From: Abditibacterium sp.
Lineage (GTDB): Bacteria > Armatimonadota > Abditibacteriia > Abditibacteriales > Abditibacteriaceae
Reading direction: 5' to 3'
Assembly (NCBI GenBank): GCA_965246885.1
Contig: OZ251992.1
Coordinates: 320,001 to 384,000 of the forward strand
Length of the DNA stretch: 64,000 nucleotides
Shown: piece by piece, positions 20,308 to 31,840 of the stretch
How positions within the stretch are numbered: position 1 is the first letter of the stretch
Layout: every line of letters starts with the position of its first letter
The notes under the pieces: generated by a model
Told to the model about the DNA's origin: nothing
The model's input: the letters and a program-made list of their open reading frames with translations, nothing else
Database searches by the model: none
Program-made: the position numbers and the translations under genes

Positions 20308-23300
20308 CTACCCGGCCTTAGCCGCCGTAAGCGCGAGCAACGCCGGGACGCCGCGCCGGTCGGCGCCGTAGCCGAAGTCAATGGTCGTGATTTCCACGTC
20401 GGGACGCGGGTTGTTCCACTGCATCGAATACGCGACGGCGCTTTGGTCAGTTCCGGCATAGGGCGCCACCCACGCGACCTGCGCGCCCGGAAGCGCCGCA
20501 ACAGGCGCGCTCTGCTTGTACGAATCCACATTCACTTGCGAGTAGACCGGGATGTTGACCGTTTGGCCGTCGGCGTAGTGGACGGTGTAGCGCGCCATTT
20601 CAAAGCGGCGACCATTCTTGCGGTCGTCGTCGTTCATCGGGCTGTCAATGCGCGCGGCCTGCAAGAAGAACAGCGCGTCCGCCTTCTGGCCGACCGGAAT
20701 ACCGCTCACATGGTCGGCCAGATTGCCCGGAACGCCGCCCCCACCGAGGATGACCGCCGTCGGCACGGGCGAAGTCTTGAAGTCGTAAATGTTGTAGCGC
20801 ACCCCCGCGAAGGTCTGGGCGCCCGTTGGCAACGCCGCGAAAGAGAAAGCCCGGTCGCCGAACCACCCCCCTTCTCCCCGGTAAGCGTTCGCCGCTTTGC
20901 CCAAGTCAACCGGCGTATACGCGAGGTTCGCTCCCGCGATGATGGTTTTCCCGCCGCTAAAGGGCGCGTGCAGATTGCGCAACAGGGCCGCCAGAATCGC
21001 CCGCTTTTTGCCCATGTTCTCCGGCACCGCTTCCGTATCCTTGTACAACACATTGTTCAGCACGAGGCCGCCCGGCCCTTGCGGGTATTCGACGAGCGCC
21101 CCGATGTTGAGCAGGGGCCGCACCTTTTGCGCGAAGTCGGCGGGTCGTTGGGCGAAAAGGGAAATGTTGTCAATGCCCAAATTCGGCGTAACGCTGGGAC
21201 GGGTTTCCCAGCCCGCGAGTTGCAGCGTGATGTCTTTGGCGCGGCGCGGCGGGTTGATGTCGAAAGTCTGCGCTTCGCCGTTAGGCACCGTGTTGAACGT
21301 GACCGTCCCATCGGGGAACACGAGGTTCACCTTGGTCGAGGCGAAGTAGTTCGTGTTGCCAATCCACGTCCAACGGCGGATGGTCTCCTCCTTCGGCAGG
21401 GAGATGGGGATGTCGAACGGCTTGCCGTCCTTGGGCGCGTCGAAGTTGATGATAAGGGGCCAGCCGTCGGCGTTGGTGAAGTTGTTGACGATGTTGCCAT
21501 ACGCCCAAAACGGCGACTTGCCAAACGGCGCGACGTCCTCCAAGTCCACGACATACGAAAAGGCGTCCTCGGCGGGATACTCCCCGGCCTGCCAGTCGAA
21601 GATGCGCTTGCCGCTTCCCATCACGATGTCCGAGGTGGACAGCCCCGCCGTGATGGGGCTACGCACCGCCGGAAACGTGACCTTCTCGCGCCCAAAGGGG
21701 CGCAGAACGTGGTTGAAGCCGACCAGCGTGTTGTACGCGGCGAGGCCATCCGGCGTCAGGTTGTTGAACACAATCCAGCCGCCGCCCGAAGTAAACGCCT
21801 TGACTTTGACGGTGTTGGCGGCGAGCGCCTGCAAATTGGCGGGCGAAGCGTCCATCACGGCAACCGAGCCGGACTTATTCAAGGCGGCGAGGGCATCCCC
21901 GGCCTTCTCGTATTGCACGCCGAGCGCGTCCATCGCTTTGGCAAGCGGCGCGTTGTCGCTTGCCACGAGGGTGACGGGATGAAAGACCAGCTTGTAGCTC
22001 GCGCCGTAGCCAATCATGTTCGCCAGCAGTTGCGCCGCGACGGGATTAGTGCCGAGCTTTTCGCCCACTGTCAGTTGCGACAACAGCATTAACCCCTGCC
22101 CCGCCGGAACTTCCACCAAGGCCGTCGAGCGCAGTCCGTCCTCGACCTGCAACAACGAGCGCCCGCCACTCGTGGGTTTGTCGTAGGCGTTGCGATACAA
22201 GACCGAGTCCGGCCCCCACGTTTGGAAGTCGCGCGCCCTCAGGCCGCGAAACACCGGATTGTCCAAGTCTTCGGGAAAGCCGATGCGCCCCTCGTTGCTT
22301 CCCGTCGCCATTTGCGCGGGCGTCGCTTGATAATGGAGCGGGTTCTTTTGCTCCAACACAATCACCGTCCGTCCGCTCGCCGCCCACGCCGCGAGCGCGC
22401 TCGATGTGCTCTGCGCCGCATCGAGCGCGTCTTTGCCGACGACCAGCACCTTGCCCGCATCGGGCAAGCTGTCCAGCCCCGCCAGCGCGGTGAACGGCAC
22501 CGACCGGCTTTGCAAAAACGCTTTCACCGTTCCAAGCGGATCGAATACCAGCAGGCCAGTCGCCGCCGTCCGCGAGCCAGTGACAGACGTGCGGGAATGG
22601 ATGGCGGACGTCTGGGACGCGACGACAGACGTGCGGGAATGAATGGCGGACGTCTGAAACTCATTCCCGGACGTCTGTCGAGCAGTGACGGATGTCTGGG
22701 AATGGACGGCGGACGCCGCTACTCGCACCGGGGGAAGAACGGACAGGGGCTTTTCGTCGCGGAACACTTCGCGTCCGTCTTTGGATAGCGAAAGCAGCAG
22801 CGTCCCCTCTTGGCGGGCGGCAACCGTCGGCATCGGGAGGGTGTCGTCGAACTTGCGGTTGGAGCCGGGCGCAAGAGTGGCCAGCGTGGTCTTGGACGCG
22901 ACCTTCTTGCCGTCAAGGGTGAGCGTCCACGTGAAGGAAAGCGGCTGCGTTTCGTGCGTGTCGTTGAAGATGCCGTAGGTGCGCTTGACCTTTTGGCCGG
23001 AGCCGAAGGAGGAGTCCCACTGGCGTTGCAAAACGGCGATGGGTTGCCACGAGTTGTAATACGCGCCGTCGGCGCTGCCCCACAGATGGAAAGCGGCGAC
23101 GCCGCTCCAGCGCATGCCCTCGGTCAGCATTTTGGAAATCAGGCCAACAGCCGGGCGCGCTTCGGCTTTGCCGAGCATGGCGCTCTCGCCACCTGCCGCC
23201 GCGAGCGTGGACAGGTTGTAGCCGTTGGAGTAAAAGACCTCGCCGAAAAAGAGCGGCTTTTGTTTTGTGATGGGCCAGCCCTGCGCGTGCGCGATTTGGG

Positions 23301-25446
23301 CGGACGGGAAGCCGAGGTTGTAACCCCAGTCGGGCAGTTGGCCCATTCCCGGCTCGATGTAGTGGATGCCGTAAACGGGCAAGGACTCATCGCCCAGCGC
23401 GTTGCCGCCGTCTAGCATCTGGGGGCGCGTCGGGTCAACTTGAGCGACGAGGTCGGCGCCCGTCTTGATGAACGGCGCGCTTTGCGGGGTGGGGCCGCGC
23501 CCGCGCCCGTCGTTGTCGTTGATGTAGGTGACTTCGTTCTCGATGCTCCAGATAAAGATGGAGGGGTGGTTGCGCTGCCCCTTGGCCCAAGCCGCGAGTT
23601 GGGTGTGCCAGTTGGCGAACAGCGCGGGGGTCAGGGTGTAATTGACGCCCTCGCCATCGAAAATGCCGGTGCGCCGCACGTTCATGCCGTGCGCGTCGAA
23701 AAAGTCGAGCGCCGCTTCGGGCGAAGCCAGTTCGTGCCAGCCGCCTTCGCCCCACAAGCGCACCATGTTGATGCCGCGCTTTTTAAGGCCCGCCAAGTCG
23801 CTTTGGGCATCGCTTCCAAACGAGGCGGTGTCGGCGCGGCCATACCAGTTGACGCCGTTGAGCTTGAAATCCGTGCCGCTCCAATCCCACTCGCGGAAGC
23901 CGAACTTGGTGGCGCGCTCGTCTACAGGCTTGCCACCATCGGCGAGGGTGGTGACGACTTGGTACTGCTGCGGGTGCGCGTCGTCGGGCCACCATAGTTT
24001 CGGGTTGGCCCACGCTTCGCTGAGCTTGACGACCTGCTCGGAGTTGGGCGCGAGGGTGACGGTGCGCGGCGCAAAGGTCTTCTCGGCTTTGCCGCCGCCC
24101 AACGGCACGACTTCGTTGCCCACGCTCACGGTGAGCGGCGCATCGGTCGGGTTATTAAGCGTGACTTCCAAGCCGAGGGTCTTGTTTTTGACCGAGGGAA
24201 TGGCGAAGACGTCCGAAGCATAGGCGCGGCCCGCCACGACAAGGGTGGGGGTTTGCAGGATGCCGTTGTCGGCGTGGTTCCACACGGGAAAATCGAACGC
24301 TTGCGAGATAAAGTTCTTCGAGGTAATCCAGTCGGTGGGAATGACAAAGCGGGTGCGCGCGTTGTTACCGCCGTCGGGCGTCAGGCCATAGTAGGTGTCC
24401 TTGATGCCAACCCACACTTCGTTGGTCTGGCCGGGTTTAATCGCTTTAGTGACGTCGCAATCCCACACCGCCAAGGGCGCTTTCGTCGTGCCGCACAGTT
24501 GCCCGTTGACGAAAACGCTGCCCAACATGTTGACGGCGGGCAAGTGCAACACGAACGAGCGGCCCGCCGCTTCTGCGGGAACCGCGACGCGCGTCCGCAA
24601 AAAGTAGCGGTGCGCGAAGGTGAGATCGGGGCGCTCGCGGTTGCGGTCGCCCGGCACGGCCATCGCGCGCCAGTTCAAGGTATCGGCGGCGGGCGCGGTG
24701 CGGATCGGCTCCGTCCTGTCCTGAACGAGGCCCTCGTCCCAGCGCCCGATTTGCCATTGCCCCGCGAGCGAGGTCGCCGTTTGAGCCGCGCCATCGGGCG
24801 CCTTCAAGGAGAACACCTGCGCTCCCGCCGCGCGGTCGGCGTCGGTCTGCCAACCCTTATCGCCCGGCTTGAACTTGCCGTTGGGGTGCCAGTCGCCCTT
24901 CACGACGGCGAGGGCGTCACCCACGTAGTGAATCTTTTGTGGTTTGCCGTCGGCGCCGTGCGCGTTGATGCGAATACGGAGGGTGTGCTTGCCCGCCGTC
25001 AAGTCCGCCTCGCCCATCGAAAGCCACGAGATGTGCGTCCAAAACGCGAGTTCCGTCAGGTCAAAGGTGGGGGCGTCGCGCCCGACCGACTGCCACGCGC
25101 CGCCGTCTACTTGGAAATCGAACGGCGGGCGGTCTACCTCGAAACCCAAACGGTTCCAGAAATGATAGTGCCCCGCCGAGGGCGCGCTGAAATCGTAGTC
25201 GAGCAACACGCCCTCTTTGGGGACGGTCTTTTCGACATCCTTGTCTTCTATATTGACGTTTAGCCAAGCATCGCCCGACATCGCGCCGCCAAAAGCATCG
25301 GCCTTGACGGGAACGTTGGCGTGCGTGGGCGCTTCGCCCTCAATCCAAGCGAAATCGGCGGCGTTCGCCGCTTTGCTCGCGCCGATGCCAAGGAACAAAA
25401 CCAAAGCCGCCCATCGGCGCGCGGAAGAAGTGCGAGGAGTATTCAT
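20308..25446 (-). CDS. Large secreted glycoside hydrolase family 2-like (beta-galactosidase-like) multidomain protein
   Basis: Start MNTPR with signal peptide; VFVNGQ, PKLWWP, FGFRE, NHPSIFIWSIENE acid/base motif, PLFFGE. The track's upstream extension to 25587 is probably not coding. Confidence 0.8.
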   Translation of the reverse strand: MNTPRTSSARRWAALVLFLGIGASKAANAADFAWIEGEAPTHANVPVKADAFGGAMSGDAWLNVNIEDKDVEKTVPKEGVLLDYDFSAPSAGHYHFWNRLGFEVDRPPFDFQVDGGAWQSVGRDAPTFDLTELAFWTHISWLSMGEADLTAGKHTLRIRINAHGADGKPQKIHYVGDALAVVKGDWHPNGKFKPGDKGWQTDADRAAGAQVFSLKAPDGAAQTATSLAGQWQIGRWDEGLVQDRTEPIRTAPAADTLNWRAMAVPGDRNRERPDLTFAHRYFLRTRVAVPAEAAGRSFVLHLPAVNMLGSVFVNGQLCGTTKAPLAVWDCDVTKAIKPGQTNEVWVGIKDTYYGLTPDGGNNARTRFVIPTDWITSKNFISQAFDFPVWNHADNGILQTPTLVVAGRAYASDVFAIPSVKNKTLGLEVTLNNPTDAPLTVSVGNEVVPLGGGKAEKTFAPRTVTLAPNSEQVVKLSEAWANPKLWWPDDAHPQQYQVVTTLADGGKPVDERATKFGFREWDWSGTDFKLNGVNWYGRADTASFGSDAQSDLAGLKKRGINMVRLWGEGGWHELASPEAALDFFDAHGMNVRRTGIFDGEGVNYTLTPALFANWHTQLAAWAKGQRNHPSIFIWSIENEVTYINDNDGRGRGPTPQSAPFIKTGADLVAQVDPTRPQMLDGGNALGDESLPVYGIHYIEPGMGQLPDWGYNLGFPSAQIAHAQGWPITKQKPLFFGEVFYSNGYNLSTLAAAGGESAMLGKAEARPAVGLISKMLTEGMRWSGVAAFHLWGSADGAYYNSWQPIAVLQRQWDSSFGSGQKVKRTYGIFNDTHETQPLSFTWTLTLDGKKVASKTTLATLAPGSNRKFDDTLPMPTVAARQEGTLLLSLSKDGREVFRDEKPLSVLPPVRVAASAVHSQTSVTARQTSGNEFQTSAIHSRTSVVASQTSAIHSRTSVTGSRTAATGLLVFDPLGTVKAFLQSRSVPFTALAGLDSLPDAGKVLVVGKDALDAAQSTSSALAAWAASGRTVIVLEQKNPLHYQATPAQMATGSNEGRIGFPEDLDNPVFRGLRARDFQTWGPDSVLYRNAYDKPTSGGRSLLQVEDGLRSTALVEVPAGQGLMLLSQLTVGEKLGTNPVAAQLLANMIGYGASYKLVFHPVTLVASDNAPLAKAMDALGVQYEKAGDALAALNKSGSVAVMDASPANLQALAANTVKVKAFTSGGGWIVFNNLTPDGLAAYNTLVGFNHVLRPFGREKVTFPAVRSPITAGLSTSDIVMGSGKRIFDWQAGEYPAEDAFSYVVDLEDVAPFGKSPFWAYGNIVNNFTNADGWPLIINFDAPKDGKPFDIPISLPKEETIRRWTWIGNTNYFASTKVNLVFPDGTVTFNTVPNGEAQTFDINPPRRAKDITLQLAGWETRPSVTPNLGIDNISLFAQRPADFAQKVRPLLNIGALVEYPQGPGGLVLNNVLYKDTEAVPENMGKKRAILAALLRNLHAPFSGGKTIIAGANLAYTPVDLGKAANAYRGEGGWFGDRAFSFAALPTGAQTFAGVRYNIYDFKTSPVPTAVILGGGGVPGNLADHVSGIPVGQKADALFFLQAARIDSPMNDDDRKNGRRFEMARYTVHYADGQTVNIPVYSQVNVDSYKQSAPVAALPGAQVAWVAPYAGTDQSAVAYSMQWNNPRPDVEITTIDFGYGADRRGVPALLALTAAKAG
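22580..22720. repeat. 21-bp-period tandem array, family A, located in-frame inside the GH2-like gene
   Basis: Units gtgacagacgtgcgggaatgg / atggcggacgtctgggacgcg / acgacagacgtgcgggaatga / atggcggacgtctgaaactca / ttcccggacgtctgtcgagca / gtgacggatgtctgggaatgg; encodes heptads such as QTSVTAR, QTSAIHS, RTSVVAS. Confidence 0.88.
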
Positions 25447-25569
25447 TACGGGTGTTGAAACGGCCCACCAAACGGAGCACCGCGAACTGTTAGACCCAGC
25501 GCGCTCGCTTCCGGTTCGCCGATAAACGTAGTGTTTCAGAATTGCGAATACGGTGCGAGCGCAAGCGCC

Positions 25570-25598
25570 ACCCGCGACGAAGAACACGACTTCCCGCC
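25570..25598 (+). repeat. FN3-like gene-end remnant, copy A (short)
   Basis: acccgcgacgaagaacacgacttcccgcc (TRDEEHDFPP), matching copies at 26244, 26516 and 27197. Confidence 0.8.
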
Positions 25599-25600
25599 GA

Positions 25601-25981
25601 TTAGGGGTAGGGCAACAGGTTCAAGCCGCCAATGAATTTGTAGTCGCGCTGGTTTTTGGAGATGAGCGGTTCGCCGTGAATGAGAGCCGTTGCTGCGATG
25701 AGGCTGTCGGCGATGAGTAAGCCGTGACTAAGGCGGTAAAGACGCAGCAACTCGACCGACTTGTCCGAGACCGCTTCGTCCAACGGCAGAATTTGGAACT
25801 GCTTCAGGAACCCGTCGAGGGCGCCGAGTTCGCCCTTGTTGCGGACGCCGACCAAAAGTTCCATCTGCGTCACAACACTGATGGCGGGGGAGGAGTTCTG
25901 CTGGATGCCCTTCAAACAATCGAGCGCCTCTGGGCCGCCGCGTCCGGCATCAATGAGAATGTCGGTGTCAATGAGGGTCAC
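25601..25981 (-). CDS. vapC: PIN-domain toxin (VapC family)
   Basis: GTG start overlapping antitoxin stop; LIDTDILID, S..TQMELL.G, IADSLIAATAL, SKNQRDY. Confidence 0.9.
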   Translation of the reverse strand: MTLIDTDILIDAGRGGPEALDCLKGIQQNSSPAISVVTQMELLVGVRNKGELGALDGFLKQFQILPLDEAVSDKSVELLRLYRLSHGLLIADSLIAATALIHGEPLISKNQRDYKFIGGLNLLPYP

Positions 25982-26208
25982 GATTCGCCCCACTCCGAGC
26001 GGCGCAACTCGCGCACGAACCCGGTGCTGTCTTCCATCTCGCCCCGGTCGCGCCACATTCCGATGAACGGCTCGTCTTCCAGAGGTGCGGACGGTGCCAC
26101 CGCCGCCCGCGCGTGTTTGAAGCGCAAAAACGCGACGAACTCATCCACTTGGCGCCGCGCTTCGGGCGGCAACGCGCCATATTCTTCCGTGATACTCTGG
26201 GCTGTCAT
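25978..26208 (-). CDS. Putative antitoxin (DUF2281-like)
   Basis: 76 aa; LPPEARRQVDEFVAFL and FIGMWRDR; coupled to the PIN gene. Confidence 0.8.
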   Translation of the reverse strand: MTAQSITEEYGALPPEARRQVDEFVAFLRFKHARAAVAPSAPLEDEPFIGMWRDRGEMEDSTGFVRELRRSEWGES

Positions 26209-26243
26209 GCCTTCCAGTGTGGCCCAAACAAAACCGAACTTCA

Positions 26244-26280
26244 ACCCGCGCCGAAGAACACCCCCTCCCGCCCGGAACAG
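26244..26280 (+). repeat. FN3-like gene-end remnant, copy B
   Basis: acccgcgccgaagaacaccccctcccgcccggaacag (TRAEEHPLPPGT). Confidence 0.75.
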
Positions 26281-26287
26281 CGCGCAA

Positions 26288-26471
26288 CTTGCCTTGGCCA
26301 ACTGTCAGTTGGCCTTGGCCGATTGTCGTTTGGCCTTGGCCAACCCACTTAATTACTTGGCCAGTTGGCAATTGGCCAACTCATGTCGCCAGTTGACCAA
26401 GGTGCGCCCGCAGTTGGCCAAGGCCAAACGAGACAATCGGCCAAGGCGAACTGACAGTTGGCCAAGGCAAG
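26288..26471. repeat. Long inverted repeat built from 21-bp-period TTGGCCAA units (family C), MITE-like
   Basis: Arm 26288-26344 is the reverse complement of 26413-26471 except for one mismatch and a 2-bp insertion; internal units gccttggccaactgtcagttg / gccttggccgattgtcgtttg. Confidence 0.9.
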
Positions 26472-26515
26472 ATTTGACCTCCTCAGTCGTCGGAGCATGG
26501 CTCCGGGCCAATGGA

Positions 26516-26614
26516 GAAGAACACCCTTTCCCGCCCGGCCAATGGGAAGTCGTCGTTTCCGCCACCAACGCCGCCGGAGATGGCCCGATGTCCAACACCG
26601 TCACCGTCACGTGA
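26516..26614 (+). pseudogene. FN3-like C-terminal remnant, copy C (EEHPFPPGQWEVVVSATNAAGDGPMSNTVTVT*)
   Basis: V.ATNAAG.GP.S resembles the last two strands of a fibronectin type III domain; no plausible start; paralogous to 27197-27310. Confidence 0.7.
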
Positions 26615-26626
26615 ACCACGAAACAA

Positions 26627-26656
26627 AACGGCCCGCCAAGAAATTGGCGGGCTGTT
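26627..26656. terminator. Hairpin, probable bidirectional terminator
   Basis: aacggcccgccaa-gaaa-ttggcgggctgtt between convergent 3' ends. Confidence 0.75.
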
Positions 26657-26662
26657 GTTGGG

Positions 26663-26959
26663 TCAAAAGCGCCAACTCGTCGGGTCGCTCCGGTCGTGGT
26701 AACAGGCGATGATCGTGACTGTGTTTCGCGCCGCGTCGAAGACGGAAAACAGCGAGTAGGGCGCGCGTCGCAGCACCAATCGGCGCACATCGTCAGCCCA
26801 CATTACGCCCGATTCGGGGAATTGTGCGAGTTGCTCGACCTTGACATCCACCGCGTCCCAAAAATCGCGCACCGAATTGGACGACCGCTCGGCCAACTCT
26901 TGCGTGATGTCCTCAATTTGCTTTTCGGCGCGGCGCAAGAACAAGACGGTGGCGCTCAT
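26663..26959 (-). CDS. RelE/ParE-family toxin
   Basis: 98 aa; LAQFPESG, VRRLVLRRAPYSLF, IIACYHDR; overlaps the antitoxin stop. Confidence 0.85.
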   Translation of the reverse strand: MSATVLFLRRAEKQIEDITQELAERSSNSVRDFWDAVDVKVEQLAQFPESGVMWADDVRRLVLRRAPYSLFSVFDAARNTVTIIACYHDRSDPTSWRF

Positions 26960-27174
26960 ATTCGGGCCAGCAACTGCGCTTTGATGTCGCTCCAAGGCCG
27001 CGCGTCGTGCGGGTTCTCGCGGTATTCGCGGATGGCCTCGCGCAAGTCGGCTTCCTGTTCGGGCGACAAGGGCGGCACTTCTTCTGTGGTCAGTCGCTCG
27101 ATAACCTCGACACGCGCGGCGTCATCCAATTCCATCACGGCTTCAAAGACTTGCTCTTTGGTCAAAACAGGCAT
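26956..27174 (-). CDS. Putative addiction-module antitoxin
   Basis: 72 aa acidic protein; LSPEQEADL...YRENP...RPWSDIKAQL; directly upstream of the toxin. Confidence 0.8.
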   Translation of the reverse strand: MPVLTKEQVFEAVMELDDAARVEVIERLTTEEVPPLSPEQEADLREAIREYRENPHDARPWSDIKAQLLARI

Positions 27175-27196
27175 ACCTTTATTTTACCCCGCCCAA

Positions 27197-27310
27197 ACCC
27201 GCGACGAAGAACCCGACTTGCCGCCAGGAACAGGGGAAGTCGTCGTCCTCGCCACCAACGCGGCGGGCGATGGCCCCTATTCCAACAGCGTCATCGTGAC
27301 GGTTGGGTGA
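27197..27310 (+). pseudogene. FN3-like C-terminal remnant, copy D (TRDEEPDLPPGTGEVVVLATNAAGDGPYSNSVIVTVG*)
   Basis: Diverged direct repeat of copy C, including the downstream gtgaaccacgaaac and hairpin. Confidence 0.7.
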
Positions 27311-27322
27311 ACCACGAAACGA

Positions 27323-27352
27323 AACAGCCCGCCGAGAAATTGGCGGGTTGTT
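27323..27352. terminator. Hairpin paralogous to 26627-26656
   Basis: aacagcccgccga-gaaa-ttggcgggttgtt. Confidence 0.7.
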
Positions 27353-27563
27353 GTGGTTGCTACCCCGTCGCAAAGTTTCGTAAATTAATCAAGCATGAAA
27401 AAGCACGTCCCTTTGCCTCGCCTCGCTCTTGCCTTGATTTTGGTGCCGCTCTTGACCTCGCTTGCATCCTCTCAAGAAACGATGAGCAGAAAAGACCGCT
27501 TGGCGCTGGAATCGGCCAAACGTCAAGACGCCTCATCTGCCCGAAAGATGATGAAGATTATTA

Positions 27564-28418
27564 ACCAGTGGTGCGGGTAGTTCAGAGGGCGAAGTCGGCA
27601 AGTTGGAGTTTGACTTTGCCCGTCCAGTTGATGCAGATGTTGAAGGCGGCGACCACATAGGCGAGGCGCGCACGTAGGGCGGGCCATGTGCGGTTGCTCA
27701 TCCTCTTGAGTCCAAGCACCCGGGTGAAGAGCGAGAAGATGGTCTCAATGAGCATCCGCTCGTTCCACTTGCCGCGCTTGCACACCAGCAAGTTGTCCGG
27801 GTCGCCTTCGTGGGCGTGAAAGCCTTGGTCGCTCAACACGATCATCTCCTCGCGCACGCGGTCAATCATCGCGTGGAAGGCGCTGTCATGGCACGCGGCA
27901 CCGGCACAAAGCCACCTCACGATCTGACCTTGGCTGTTGCAAAGCACAACGAACTTGGCGCCCACGATCCATCGGTGGTTGGAGAGGGTCTTGCGCCCGA
28001 TCTGGCGGGGGCTACGTCCTTGGCGGCGCGGGTGCAACAGTTCGATACCTAAGCTGTCGCACACGCCAAACAAGGTGGGGTCGGCGAGAAAATGCTGGGT
28101 TTGCTCTGCGTGTTGCTCGAACAAGCGGAACAAGCGCGTGCGCTCTGGCAAGCGGGGGAAAAGCTCCTTCAACTCGCGTTTAGCCCAGCGATAAAAGGCG
28201 CGATTGCCCCCGCCCTTCAAAGCGTGAAGCAGGCCCAAGGTCACCACTTCGCTGGGATGAAGATGGGCTAAGGGGTGTTTGAGGGCAGCCAAGGCGTCGT
28301 CCACACGGCAAAACAGAGACACGGTAAAATCTTGAAGGGTCACAGGTCGCTCCTTGAGGTTTGGTCACCATCAAGATTACGCTGACCTGTGGCCTCACCG
28401 CAAACCCGCACCACTGGT
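27564..28418 (-). mobile_element. IS982-family insertion sequence, 855 bp
   Basis: 15-bp terminal inverted repeats ACCAGTGGTGCGGGT (27564-27578; 28404-28418); 5-bp target duplication TATTA (27559-27563; 28419-28423). Confidence 0.88.
27582..28343 (-). CDS. DDE transposase, IS982-like
   Basis: FCRVDD, SEVVTL, FP.LPERTR, CDS, SDQGF and ERMLIETIFS. Confidence 0.85.
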   Translation of the reverse strand: MTLQDFTVSLFCRVDDALAALKHPLAHLHPSEVVTLGLLHALKGGGNRAFYRWAKRELKELFPRLPERTRLFRLFEQHAEQTQHFLADPTLFGVCDSLGIELLHPRRQGRSPRQIGRKTLSNHRWIVGAKFVVLCNSQGQIVRWLCAGAACHDSAFHAMIDRVREEMIVLSDQGFHAHEGDPDNLLVCKRGKWNERMLIETIFSLFTRVLGLKRMSNRTWPALRARLAYVVAAFNICINWTGKVKLQLADFAL

Positions 28419-28693
28419 TATTAGGCTGAATGGCGATTACCCCTATGTTTCATCTATACGCCCAGTTGTCTTGGAGGTCTGGGAGCCATCTATTATCCTC
28501 CACATAAAGATGAAGCCTTCGTGGACAAAGCTGTCTCCTTCCAAGAAGAGGAAAGCTACTCAGTCATTGCTCAAACTGTGGGATTCTTTTTGCTCGATGC
28601 AAAGTCCGCCGAGTTATGCTTGGATTAGAATCTACGACTCAGGAGGGCAACAGGTGGGCGAGGCAAGTAAAGGGAGTGAGTAAGCCACTCATC

Positions 28694-28749: not shown

Positions 28750-29229
28750 TTAGAAAATTGTTCTGTGTGTTCTATAAAAGGCGTGGGCCTTTTCGGATTG
28801 ATCTTTCCAAAACGCAACTTTGGCTGCATCATTTTTAGTCTCGTCATCAAACTTAGTCAAAGCGCCTATTTTATACATGAGATTGTAAAACCCGTCAGTT
28901 GGCATCCCATTTTGTTTACCAACACCAAAACAGCTTGCAAAAAATTGGTGTTCTATGTAGCTATGACGCGAGATAAACCCCATATAATCTCCCAATAAAT
29001 CTTGATCGAATCCATTCCAGCTTCGAGTGTCTATCTGGAATGGCACACCGAGCCTGATGTTGGGCAGACAAAAATCGACACCTTGCACTAAATTGGAATA
29101 GTTAATCCAGTTCTCTTTGTGTGACCTTGCTGCACTGGCGATTCGTGCTTCCAAAGCGGTCACAGCATTCCAGTCTTTAGGCGCATATTTCCATTCTATG
29201 CTCAGCAATTTCTCAGCGATTGGGTTCAT
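28750..29229 (-). CDS. Hypothetical protein, low GC (likely horizontally acquired)
   Basis: 159-aa ORF with upstream GGAGG; visibly AT-rich relative to the flanks. Confidence 0.7.
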   Translation of the reverse strand: MNPIAEKLLSIEWKYAPKDWNAVTALEARIASAARSHKENWINYSNLVQGVDFCLPNIRLGVPFQIDTRSWNGFDQDLLGDYMGFISRHSYIEHQFFASCFGVGKQNGMPTDGFYNLMYKIGALTKFDDETKNDAAKVAFWKDQSEKAHAFYRTHRTIF

Positions 29230-30886: not shown

Positions 30887-31168
30887 TTACTTGCCGCGTT
30901 TGAGGAGGCGCCAGCCACCACGGATCAGCAAAATTCCGAAATAACAAAAGACCAAGCCCATCAATGCTGAGCCACTCACCGCAGAAAGACTCGCAGGACG
31001 CGGCGTAGGAATTCCGGCAAAACGGAACGCGATTCCGGTCATGCAAATACCACCCAGAACAAAAAGTGAGAAGCCCTGAAATACATGAGTCAGCCCCTTC
31101 CAGTTAGTCCAAAAAGTGCGAGACGGTTTTGAACGCGGGTCGGCGATGGGGGGCGGTTCGGGGTTCAT
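30887..31168 (-). CDS. Small membrane protein (PPPIA-leader family, copy 1)
   Basis: MNPEPPPIADP followed by two hydrophobic segments. Confidence 0.65.
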   Translation of the reverse strand: MNPEPPPIADPRSKPSRTFWTNWKGLTHVFQGFSLFVLGGICMTGIAFRFAGIPTPRPASLSAVSGSALMGLVFCYFGILLIRGGWRLLKRGK

Positions 31169-31195
31169 GGCGAGGCGTCGGAGTTTATGGGCAGC

Positions 31196-31312
31196 GCGTC
31201 CGGGAGGACGCTTGGCGAAGCCGGATGCCGGGGATTTCATATCCCCGAACACCAACGGGGGTATAAAACCCCCGGCATCCGGGCGCAAGCGCCCAAGCGT
31301 CCTGCCGGACGC
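31196..31312. repeat. REPIN-like nested palindrome
   Basis: Outer arms 31196-31215/31293-31312 (1 mismatch) and inner arms 31221-31247/31256-31282 (3 mismatches); each arm is itself a small hairpin. Confidence 0.8.
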
Positions 31313-31323
31313 GGCGCCGCGAT

Positions 31324-31608
31324 TCACCGCCCGTACTTCCAGATTCGCAGCCCATGCCGGATGAGCAGGAAGCCCAACGCGCACAGAACCAGCGAGAACA
31401 CACCCACTACGGCGTAGCCAAAAGTGTTGCCGAGCGTCATTCGTGGCATGAGGTCGCCGGGTATGAAAAACCCCAACAACAACGTCGGCACGCCAAAGCA
31501 AATGTGAACCAGCCCCAACAACCAAGTCCAAACCGTGCGCGGCGCCGTTTCGATGGGTAGGGGCGGCGCCCCTTGCGCGTCGGCAATGGGCGGCGGGTCG
31601 GGGTTCAT
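31324..31608 (-). CDS. Small membrane protein (PPPIA-leader family, copy 2)
   Basis: MNPDPPPIADAQGAPP, two TM segments, LLIRHG end resembling copy 1 (LLIRGG). Confidence 0.65.
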   Translation of the reverse strand: MNPDPPPIADAQGAPPLPIETAPRTVWTWLLGLVHICFGVPTLLLGFFIPGDLMPRMTLGNTFGYAVVGVFSLVLCALGFLLIRHGLRIWKYGR

Positions 31609-31623
31609 GGGATAGCACGCGGG

Positions 31624-31788
31624 CTAATAACCTTGGGTGCACATCGCGTAAATGAAGCAGCCAGCCCCGATAATATAGGCCAGAAAGAAGGCGGCAAGGA
31701 GAATCACTGCGCGGCTCACTGGCGGTCGTTGCGGCGGGTCGGGCGGCGCCCCATGCGGGTTGGCAATGGGCGGCGGTTCGGCGGGCAC
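31624..31788 (-). CDS. Small membrane protein (PPPIA-leader family, copy 3; 54 aa, not in the ORF track)
   Basis: GTG start, VPAEPPPIANPHGAPP followed by one TM segment. Confidence 0.5.
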   Translation of the reverse strand: MPAEPPPIANPHGAPPDPPQRPPVSRAVILLAAFFLAYIIGAGCFIYAMCTQGY

Positions 31789-31840
31789 CGCCGAAGTATA
31801 CGGACGAAAAAGGCGCGCACCAAGCGGTGCGCGCCTTTCC

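Follow-up and report, generated by a model that had tools for sequence, protein, structure and literature searches.

The window, a stretch of 64,000 nucleotides of an Abditibacterium sp. genome, contains two type II toxin–antitoxin (TA) operons set among four direct copies, A–D, of a repeated motif (Table 1). The window sequence and a repeat search placed all four copies on the forward strand, and both TA operons are antisense to them, as an earlier note on this DNA had stated. In line with the same note, copies A and B bracket the VapC/DUF2281-like pair, with the end of A (25598) lying 2 nt ahead of the VapC stop codon (25601–25603), and copies C and D stand around the ParE pair. The parE stop codon abuts the terminator of C, a hairpin with its T tract on the reverse strand, behind parE. 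At the left, the upstream region of a gene resembling glycoside hydrolase family 2 (GH2) abuts copy A.

Table 1. Features of the repeat and TA locus and of its neighbours (positions within the window).
Feature	Position	Strand	Remarks
Large GH2-like gene	20308–25446	−	Left neighbour; PF00703, E = 3.4e-14
Copy A	25570–25598	+	29-nt internal piece of helix-FN3 gene, codons TRDEEHDFP; no gene end or terminator
VapC toxin (PIN)	25601–25981	−	PF01850, E = 5.9e-14, above cut-off
VapB/DUF2281-like antitoxin	25978–26208	−	DUF2281, E = 0.13, below cut-off
Possible vapBC promoter	26216–26244	−	TTGAAG, 17 nt, CACACT; putative, read by eye
Copy B	26243–26275	+	33-nt piece, 88% identical to parent L057
Palindrome, 184 bp	26288–26471	.	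21-bp periodicity; between B and C; z = −13.6
Partial extra repeat	26503–26519	+	PGQWE codons again, just ahead of C
Copy C	26516–26658	+	3' end of helix-FN3 gene: final 32 codons, stop and terminator hairpin
ParE toxin	26663–26959	−	PF05016, E = 9.8e-7, above cut-off
Unstab_antitox-like antitoxin	26956–27174	−	E = 7e-4, below cut-off
Copy D	27190–27354	+	3' end of second helix-FN3 gene: final ~39 codons, stop and terminator; start put at 27197 in the earlier note
5' part of a gene	27395–27562	+	Right neighbour; signal-peptide-like start; cut by insertion sequence
Insertion sequence	27563–28421	−	DDE_Tnp_1 transposase; 3-bp target duplication

The four direct copies at 25570, 26243/4, 26516 and 27197 are real. 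Against the 3.56-Mb genome they exceeded chance, with blastn E-values of 8e-6 for A–D, 0.004 for A–B and 1e-28 for C–D, the last pair being 77.9% identical over 149 nt. The distance from repeat to repeat was 674 nt from A to B and 690 nt from C to D. Genome-wide blastn, tblastn and HMM searches of the 3.56-Mb assembly recovered no further copy of the motif apart from one terminator-like hairpin; the many copies, each beside a different cargo gene, that had been anticipated were found neither elsewhere in this genome nor in 26 genomes of the family. Copy B has derived bases in common with C, and these, together with the partial extra repeat at 26503–26519, suggest that B and C are a single remnant that underwent a local duplication of about 30 nt and was split by the palindrome, which would give three remnants in all (A, B/C, and D). 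An Rfam search returned nothing at gathering score. A CRISPR reading of the repeats was rejected because their spacing is 260–690 nt and is occupied by genes, and the long forward-strand frames that terminate within C (296 aa) and within D (204 aa), being antisense to the TA genes and having no credible homologue in the genome, were treated as chance.

When 1.84 billion proteins were searched with a profile of C and D, 223 scored E ≤ 0.001, most of them with multiple FN3 domains; 13 of the 150 matches listed were examined. The single-stretch matches led to a family of 200–207-aa proteins with intact members in other genomes and metagenomes, so that the intact FN3-ending parents sought elsewhere do exist. 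The copies were homologous to the C-terminus of intact members with E-values of 2.9e-13 and 3.3e-11. Judged by this homology, copies A–D are 3' ends of genes whose ∼205-aa products combine a helical hairpin with an FN3 domain (the helix-FN3 family); HEX8465194.1 (Abditibacterium sp.) is an uncharacterised example of about 200 aa. In the AlphaFold model of a parent (pLDDT 86.6, pTM 0.47) a long helical hairpin precedes a beta-sandwich, and the sandwich matched FN3 domains in Foldseek (E = 3e-8). All 16 parent proteins matched Pfam fn3 weakly, the best at E = 6.9e-5 and the first member below the cut-off; the C and D peptides alone matched no Pfam family. The original description of C and D as an FN3 gene end plus a shared hairpin is thus confirmed through the Pfam and Foldseek results on their parents.

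The sole close parent with downstream DNA was found on a metagenome contig (L057), which carries its 3' 150 codons in one frame and the same terminator as the copies. Convergent behind this terminator lie genes for Vsr and an EcoRII-like endonuclease. Copy A is identical to L057 at 29/29 nt, C is 79% identical over 146 nt and D 75% over 163 nt, and both C and D contain the parent's stop codon and terminator. Of the 26 family genomes only G019 had a strong full-length member of the subfamily, and sampling of other genomes in the phylum added none. The genome under study, which is 92.7% complete, yielded neither an intact subfamily gene nor a 5' piece of one by blastn, tblastn or HMM, its only relative being a distant helix-FN3 paralogue 990 kb away. 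Short proteins of 57–119 aa made up 7/17 subfamily members, a biased sample in which six had been in the query profile and two lay on contigs of about 560 nt; a helix-FN3 copy in a further genome (G008) carries an internal stop. Of the members examined, the broken P0017 and P0018 are interrupted further upstream than the copies at the locus, and P0026 has an internal gap ending at the same codons as the copies' left edge. Degenerate patterns of the motif matched no metagenome, genome or viral contig, and a plasmid search likewise gave no match. Profile scans confirmed 1/41 candidate stretches in metagenomes, 0/35 in genomes and 0/55 in viral contigs, none of 41 candidates was confirmed when a 40-aa query was compared with longer proteins, and an Atlas search with D returned only unnamed short clusters.

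Several observations concern helix-FN3 genes outside the locus. Most family genomes have zero or one such gene, and G019 has at least 11, dispersed and diverged, at unrelated intergenic sites (L101–L111). The distant intact paralogue in the genome under study (C1:1334344–1337961, L017) is followed by a Y1 transposase gene flanked by REP-like palindromes, and similar palindromes occur in the window (31190–31318). Arrays with a 21-bp period were seen by eye ahead of four intact helix-FN3 genes.

Copies C and D differ at 23/96 coding nucleotides, with no stop or frameshift. Eleven of the 23 differences fall at third positions, which bears out the third-position divergence described earlier in number, although the excess alone is not significant (p about 0.11, dN/dS 0.47). 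The pattern across conserved residues was more informative: at 13 codons invariant in the family, as defined from 16 intact proteins, C and D differ at 1/26 first and second positions and at 5/13 third positions (p = 0.011), and in a neutral simulation of 23 random changes at most one invariant residue was altered in 0.15% of trials (P = 0.0015). Since the differences spare invariant codons, most of the divergence arose while both sequences belonged to working genes; on this codon evidence, C and D stem from different once-functional genes rather than from one dead fragment, in agreement with the separate donors proposed in the earlier note. The near-identity of their 3' UTRs (84%) indicates that the donors were close kin; the NAAGD residues are also common to both.

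The left edges of the copies coincide. On L057 the homology begins near position 339 for A, 337 for B and 331 for D, all within 9 nt of one another in a 618-nt parent, consistent with the common site that had been proposed. Three uniform, independent breaks would fall within 9 nt with a probability of 0.0008 under a simple null in which independence is assumed. The spot corresponds to the end of the least conserved loop of the family. It is also where the TA operons begin: by eye, a −10-like hexamer lies 0–4 nt from GCCCAAAC both ahead of B and where D starts. The putative vapBC promoter overlaps the left edge of B and the upstream GCCCAAAC, and the parDE −10-like TAAAAT (27181–27186) also occurs ahead of the parDE orthologue in a congener (G002). 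A consensus promoter scan did not flag these by-eye elements near B and D.

VapC orthologues with 63–64% identity were present in two congeners (G004 and G006) and a ParE orthologue with 61% identity in G002, in each case with the antitoxin co-conserved; among the 26 family genomes, VapC relatives occurred in nine and ParE relatives in three. In the congeners the orthologous operons are minimal units at unrelated places. Eight of the 14 non-self TA loci were examined, among them the three close orthologues, and none of the eight has an FN3 end. The idea that each cargo arrived together with an FN3 end is supported by the defence cargo behind the same terminator in L057, but a coupling of these TA pairs to FN3 ends in relatives is not supported. 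Long flanking repeats were found at 0/8 other TA loci, and the idea that TA modules habitually make long target duplications was rejected on this ground. The DNA of copy C gave 19–50-nt matches in 8 of 60 other genomes, and the seven loci examined from these were hairpins, chance matches or, in G019, another helix-FN3 gene; a search of relatives with the C peptide was negative (0/30). The 11 helix-FN3 paralogues of G019 stand singly, none in tandem, and none of nine scanned neighbours downstream were TA genes, two loci stopping at contig ends.

Integron arrays consist of minimal gene units between direct repeats, and TA pairs in them are inverted and have their own promoter. The locus is similar in having minimal units between direct repeats and inverted, promoter-bearing TA pairs. 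It differs in that the best match to IntI (TIGR02249) in the 92.7% complete genome scored 42 bits against a cut-off of 265, and in that the repeats are coding DNA that does not fold as attC hairpins (z of −1.1 and −1.2 for the coding parts of D, 0.8 for A and 1.3 for B), only terminator-containing stretches folding better than shuffles. An integron cassette array was rejected on these two grounds, and the analogy drawn in the earlier note lapses with it. Orphan C-terminal modules of Rhs/CDI loci are repeats of 3' gene fragments, each beginning at a conserved motif, a trait shared by the copies here. In contrast to them, the locus has no full-length upstream gene, its gene tips are homologous to one another and are not toxins, and its neighbours are independent TA operons on the opposite strand. 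The Rhs/CDI layout suggested earlier was given up because no intact upstream parent exists and no variable toxin C-terminus is paired with an immunity gene on the same strand. Diversity-generating retroelements were rejected since the adenine bias is absent (4/23 C–D differences at A in C, 5/23 at A in D) and the single reverse transcriptase gene lies about 967 kb away. That enzyme (511 aa) is possibly defence-associated or retron-like; its gene adjoins one for a product of 584 aa that has a Cys/His motif at its C-terminus, the region spanning C1:1313168–1316355.

Tandem genomic islands with displaced fragments of their target gene have been reported in the available text of work on Islander (PMC4383910) and on SXT/R391 arrays (PMC5812530), and they share with the locus direct repeats of target-gene 3' ends and a common left edge. 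The units here differ in being only 0.7 kb long without an integrase, with no intact target and with a target that is patchy and non-essential; lacking an integrase in each unit and an intact target gene, the locus is not counted among tandem integrative islands. A layout of this geometry is also modelled for the displacement arrays of type VI secretion system (T6SS) effector–immunity genes in Vibrio cholerae, which the available part of the source attributes to homology-facilitated illegitimate recombination, as it does Rhs orphans (Kirchberger et al., 2017; PMC5361080). As described there, a module anchored by homology shifts the old 3' end downstream, so that gene ends alternate with cargo, and no dedicated recombinase is involved. 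The present locus departs from this in that its cargo is antisense type II TA operons instead of cognate immunity genes, its gene end is a conserved set of FN3 strands instead of a variable toxin, and its front gene is missing. Overall, the locus works like a displacement or accretion array and is not an integron, Rhs/CDI locus, diversity-generating retroelement or integrative island, as each of these four fails at a defining feature tested here. No published description of this arrangement was found in a literature search that covered largely main texts available without subscription.

Tentatively, the best explanation of the locus is a displacement array that host recombination built and that has since decayed, its intact front gene being lost. 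A helix-FN3 gene would formerly have stood here, and two or more times a relative's DNA, containing that relative's form of the gene, the terminator and a convergent downstream TA operon, would have recombined in. The incoming DNA would have paired by homology on the gene side; the other joint would have been non-homologous, lying immediately 5' to the TA −10 box, where the resident gene's conserved final block begins. Every such event would shift the old gene end rightward and so produce repeats of end, terminator and cargo, D being the oldest, followed by B/C with parDE and then by A with vapBC. Later loss of the front gene would leave A, and the TA operons, which persist, would use the leftover terminator. 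The observed geometry, a repeated order of gene end, terminator and cargo with different donors, is what successive displacement produces, the convergent Vsr and EcoRII-like genes of L057 have the layout required of a donor, and A matches L057 exactly whereas B and C share other bases. Also in favour are the sparing of invariant codons in C and D, the coincident left edges, and a search of the 92.7% complete genome in which no IntI, serine recombinase or IS110 turned up. On the other hand, the genome contains neither an intact front gene nor any 5' fragment from the subfamily, and A, lacking gene end and terminator, requires an extra deletion. Illegitimate joints would not have to fall at the same site each time, and the process itself is described as rare in the available text of PMC5361080. 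Also against displacement are the TA orthologues of G004, G006 and G002 without an FN3 end, the lack of TA genes among the nine downstream neighbours scanned beside the G019 paralogues, the different break points of P0017 and P0018, an overall dN/dS not significantly below 1, the near-identical 3' UTRs of C and D, which make their donors close kin, the lack of a joint skipping a TA module among the 15 joints listed, out of 26, for two sequencing runs (X1 and X2), and the occurrence in one genome only. A somewhat unlikely origin of the locus is a group of intact helix-FN3 paralogues, two or three in number, struck by independent insertions of minimal TA units with adjacent deletions. Cargo and gene ends would then be uncoupled, and the ends would survive by supplying terminator and promoter DNA. 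Such a history agrees with the minimal TA units at unrelated places in congeners, with a family that is patchy and often broken (within the biased sample of 17 and in G008), with a region behind pafA that differs in 12/12 congeners, and with the coding-type divergence of C and D, but no tandem paralogues occur at the 11 G019 loci, and three left edges within 9 nt would be left unexplained.

It is unlikely that small integrative elements accreted in tandem at an attachment site within the helix-FN3 gene, each bringing a replacement 3' end and displacing the old one, with the recombinase since lost or acting in trans. The fixed left edge, the displaced 3' fragments and the selected divergence would fit target-restoring islands as described in the available text of PMC4383910, and the similar unit lengths of 674 and 690 nt, together with three tyrosine recombinases of unassigned role encoded in the genome, speak in the same direction. 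These recombinases, encoded at C1:212927–213982, 1968900–1969940 and 2249699–2250730, however, lie each more than 130 kb from the locus; no integrase is found in or near the units, no serine recombinase or IS110 was found in a search of the 92.7% complete genome, and no intact target is present. A target family carried by 1/26 family genomes makes a poor attachment site, the motif has no dyad structure, and its left edges vary by up to 9 nt. Runs X1 and X2, which belong to a single study, contain the stretch, and one of them is possibly its source, while no RNA run was listed as containing it; the assembled contigs of X1 and X2 showed no excision joint among the 15 joints listed, out of 26. 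It is improbable that the conserved last block of a dispersed helix-FN3 gene is a fixed recombination site for stacking promoter-carrying TA and restriction modules of about 0.7 kb as cassettes, each with a working replacement end and terminator; such a system would be integron-like but with coding DNA as the site and an unassigned recombinase in trans. That a single dead fragment was duplicated locally and then decayed neutrally, the alternative which the earlier note had set against its own proposal, is highly improbable. The motif does occur only at this locus in the genome, C and D share their 3' UTR and NAAGD, B and C look like a small local duplication, and duplication would yield a common left edge; yet the sparing of invariant codons disfavours simple duplication and largely refutes it for C and D, A is identical to a foreign parent whereas B and C are not, and no long target duplication was seen at the eight other TA loci.

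If the displacement reading is true, such arrays occur outside polymorphic toxin loci too, a landing pad could be provided by any multi-copy gene that is patchily distributed and has a conserved tail, and TA clusters, or addiction and defence modules, would have a route for piling up without an integrase. A fixed cassette site, if true, would be a new class of such sites. The structure is real and non-trivial, yet it is a single decayed locus with no enzyme, strain series or second example, and one such locus in one genome limits the reach of these conclusions.

No synteny was found across 25.5–29.3 kb in 13 regions from 12 congeners, some of them on short contigs, and the genes that follow pafA differ from one congener to the next. 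At 28750–29229, between two terminator hairpins behind pafA, an AT-rich ORF of 159 aa (GC 42%, GC3 43%) had no Pfam or PADLOC match. Between pafA and an MsrA-like gene (31086–31800) lie short repeated ORFs with similar proline-rich leaders, the leader repeats forming a family (D5) of three 41-nt copies. The insertion sequence at the right has two genome copies with identical transposase, the second near C1:2652.8 kb. Arrays with a 21- or 42-bp period number about 249 in the genome (223 at lag 21, against one at lag 20 and none at lag 22); they form a large dispersed population of several sequence classes, many palindromic, with examples in the window at 22535–22720 and 26288–26471, and one lies in frame within the GH2-like gene. 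A role of the palindrome between B and C as the promoter array of C's parent is not supported, since such arrays are scattered over the genome in this number and include no similar copy of it.

In run X2, contig depth fell from 60 (22000–25985) to 10–17 at the vapB/vapC junction (25956–25986), whereas depth in X1 was flat; the step possibly reflects a second strain or an extra copy having only the part from the GH2-like gene through A to vapC. Run X1 contained a contig of depth 3.7 with a 3-nt gap in D (27239), and a contig there broke at a 30-mer that covers the end of D (27304–27333); both hint that the sample held a further D-like sequence.
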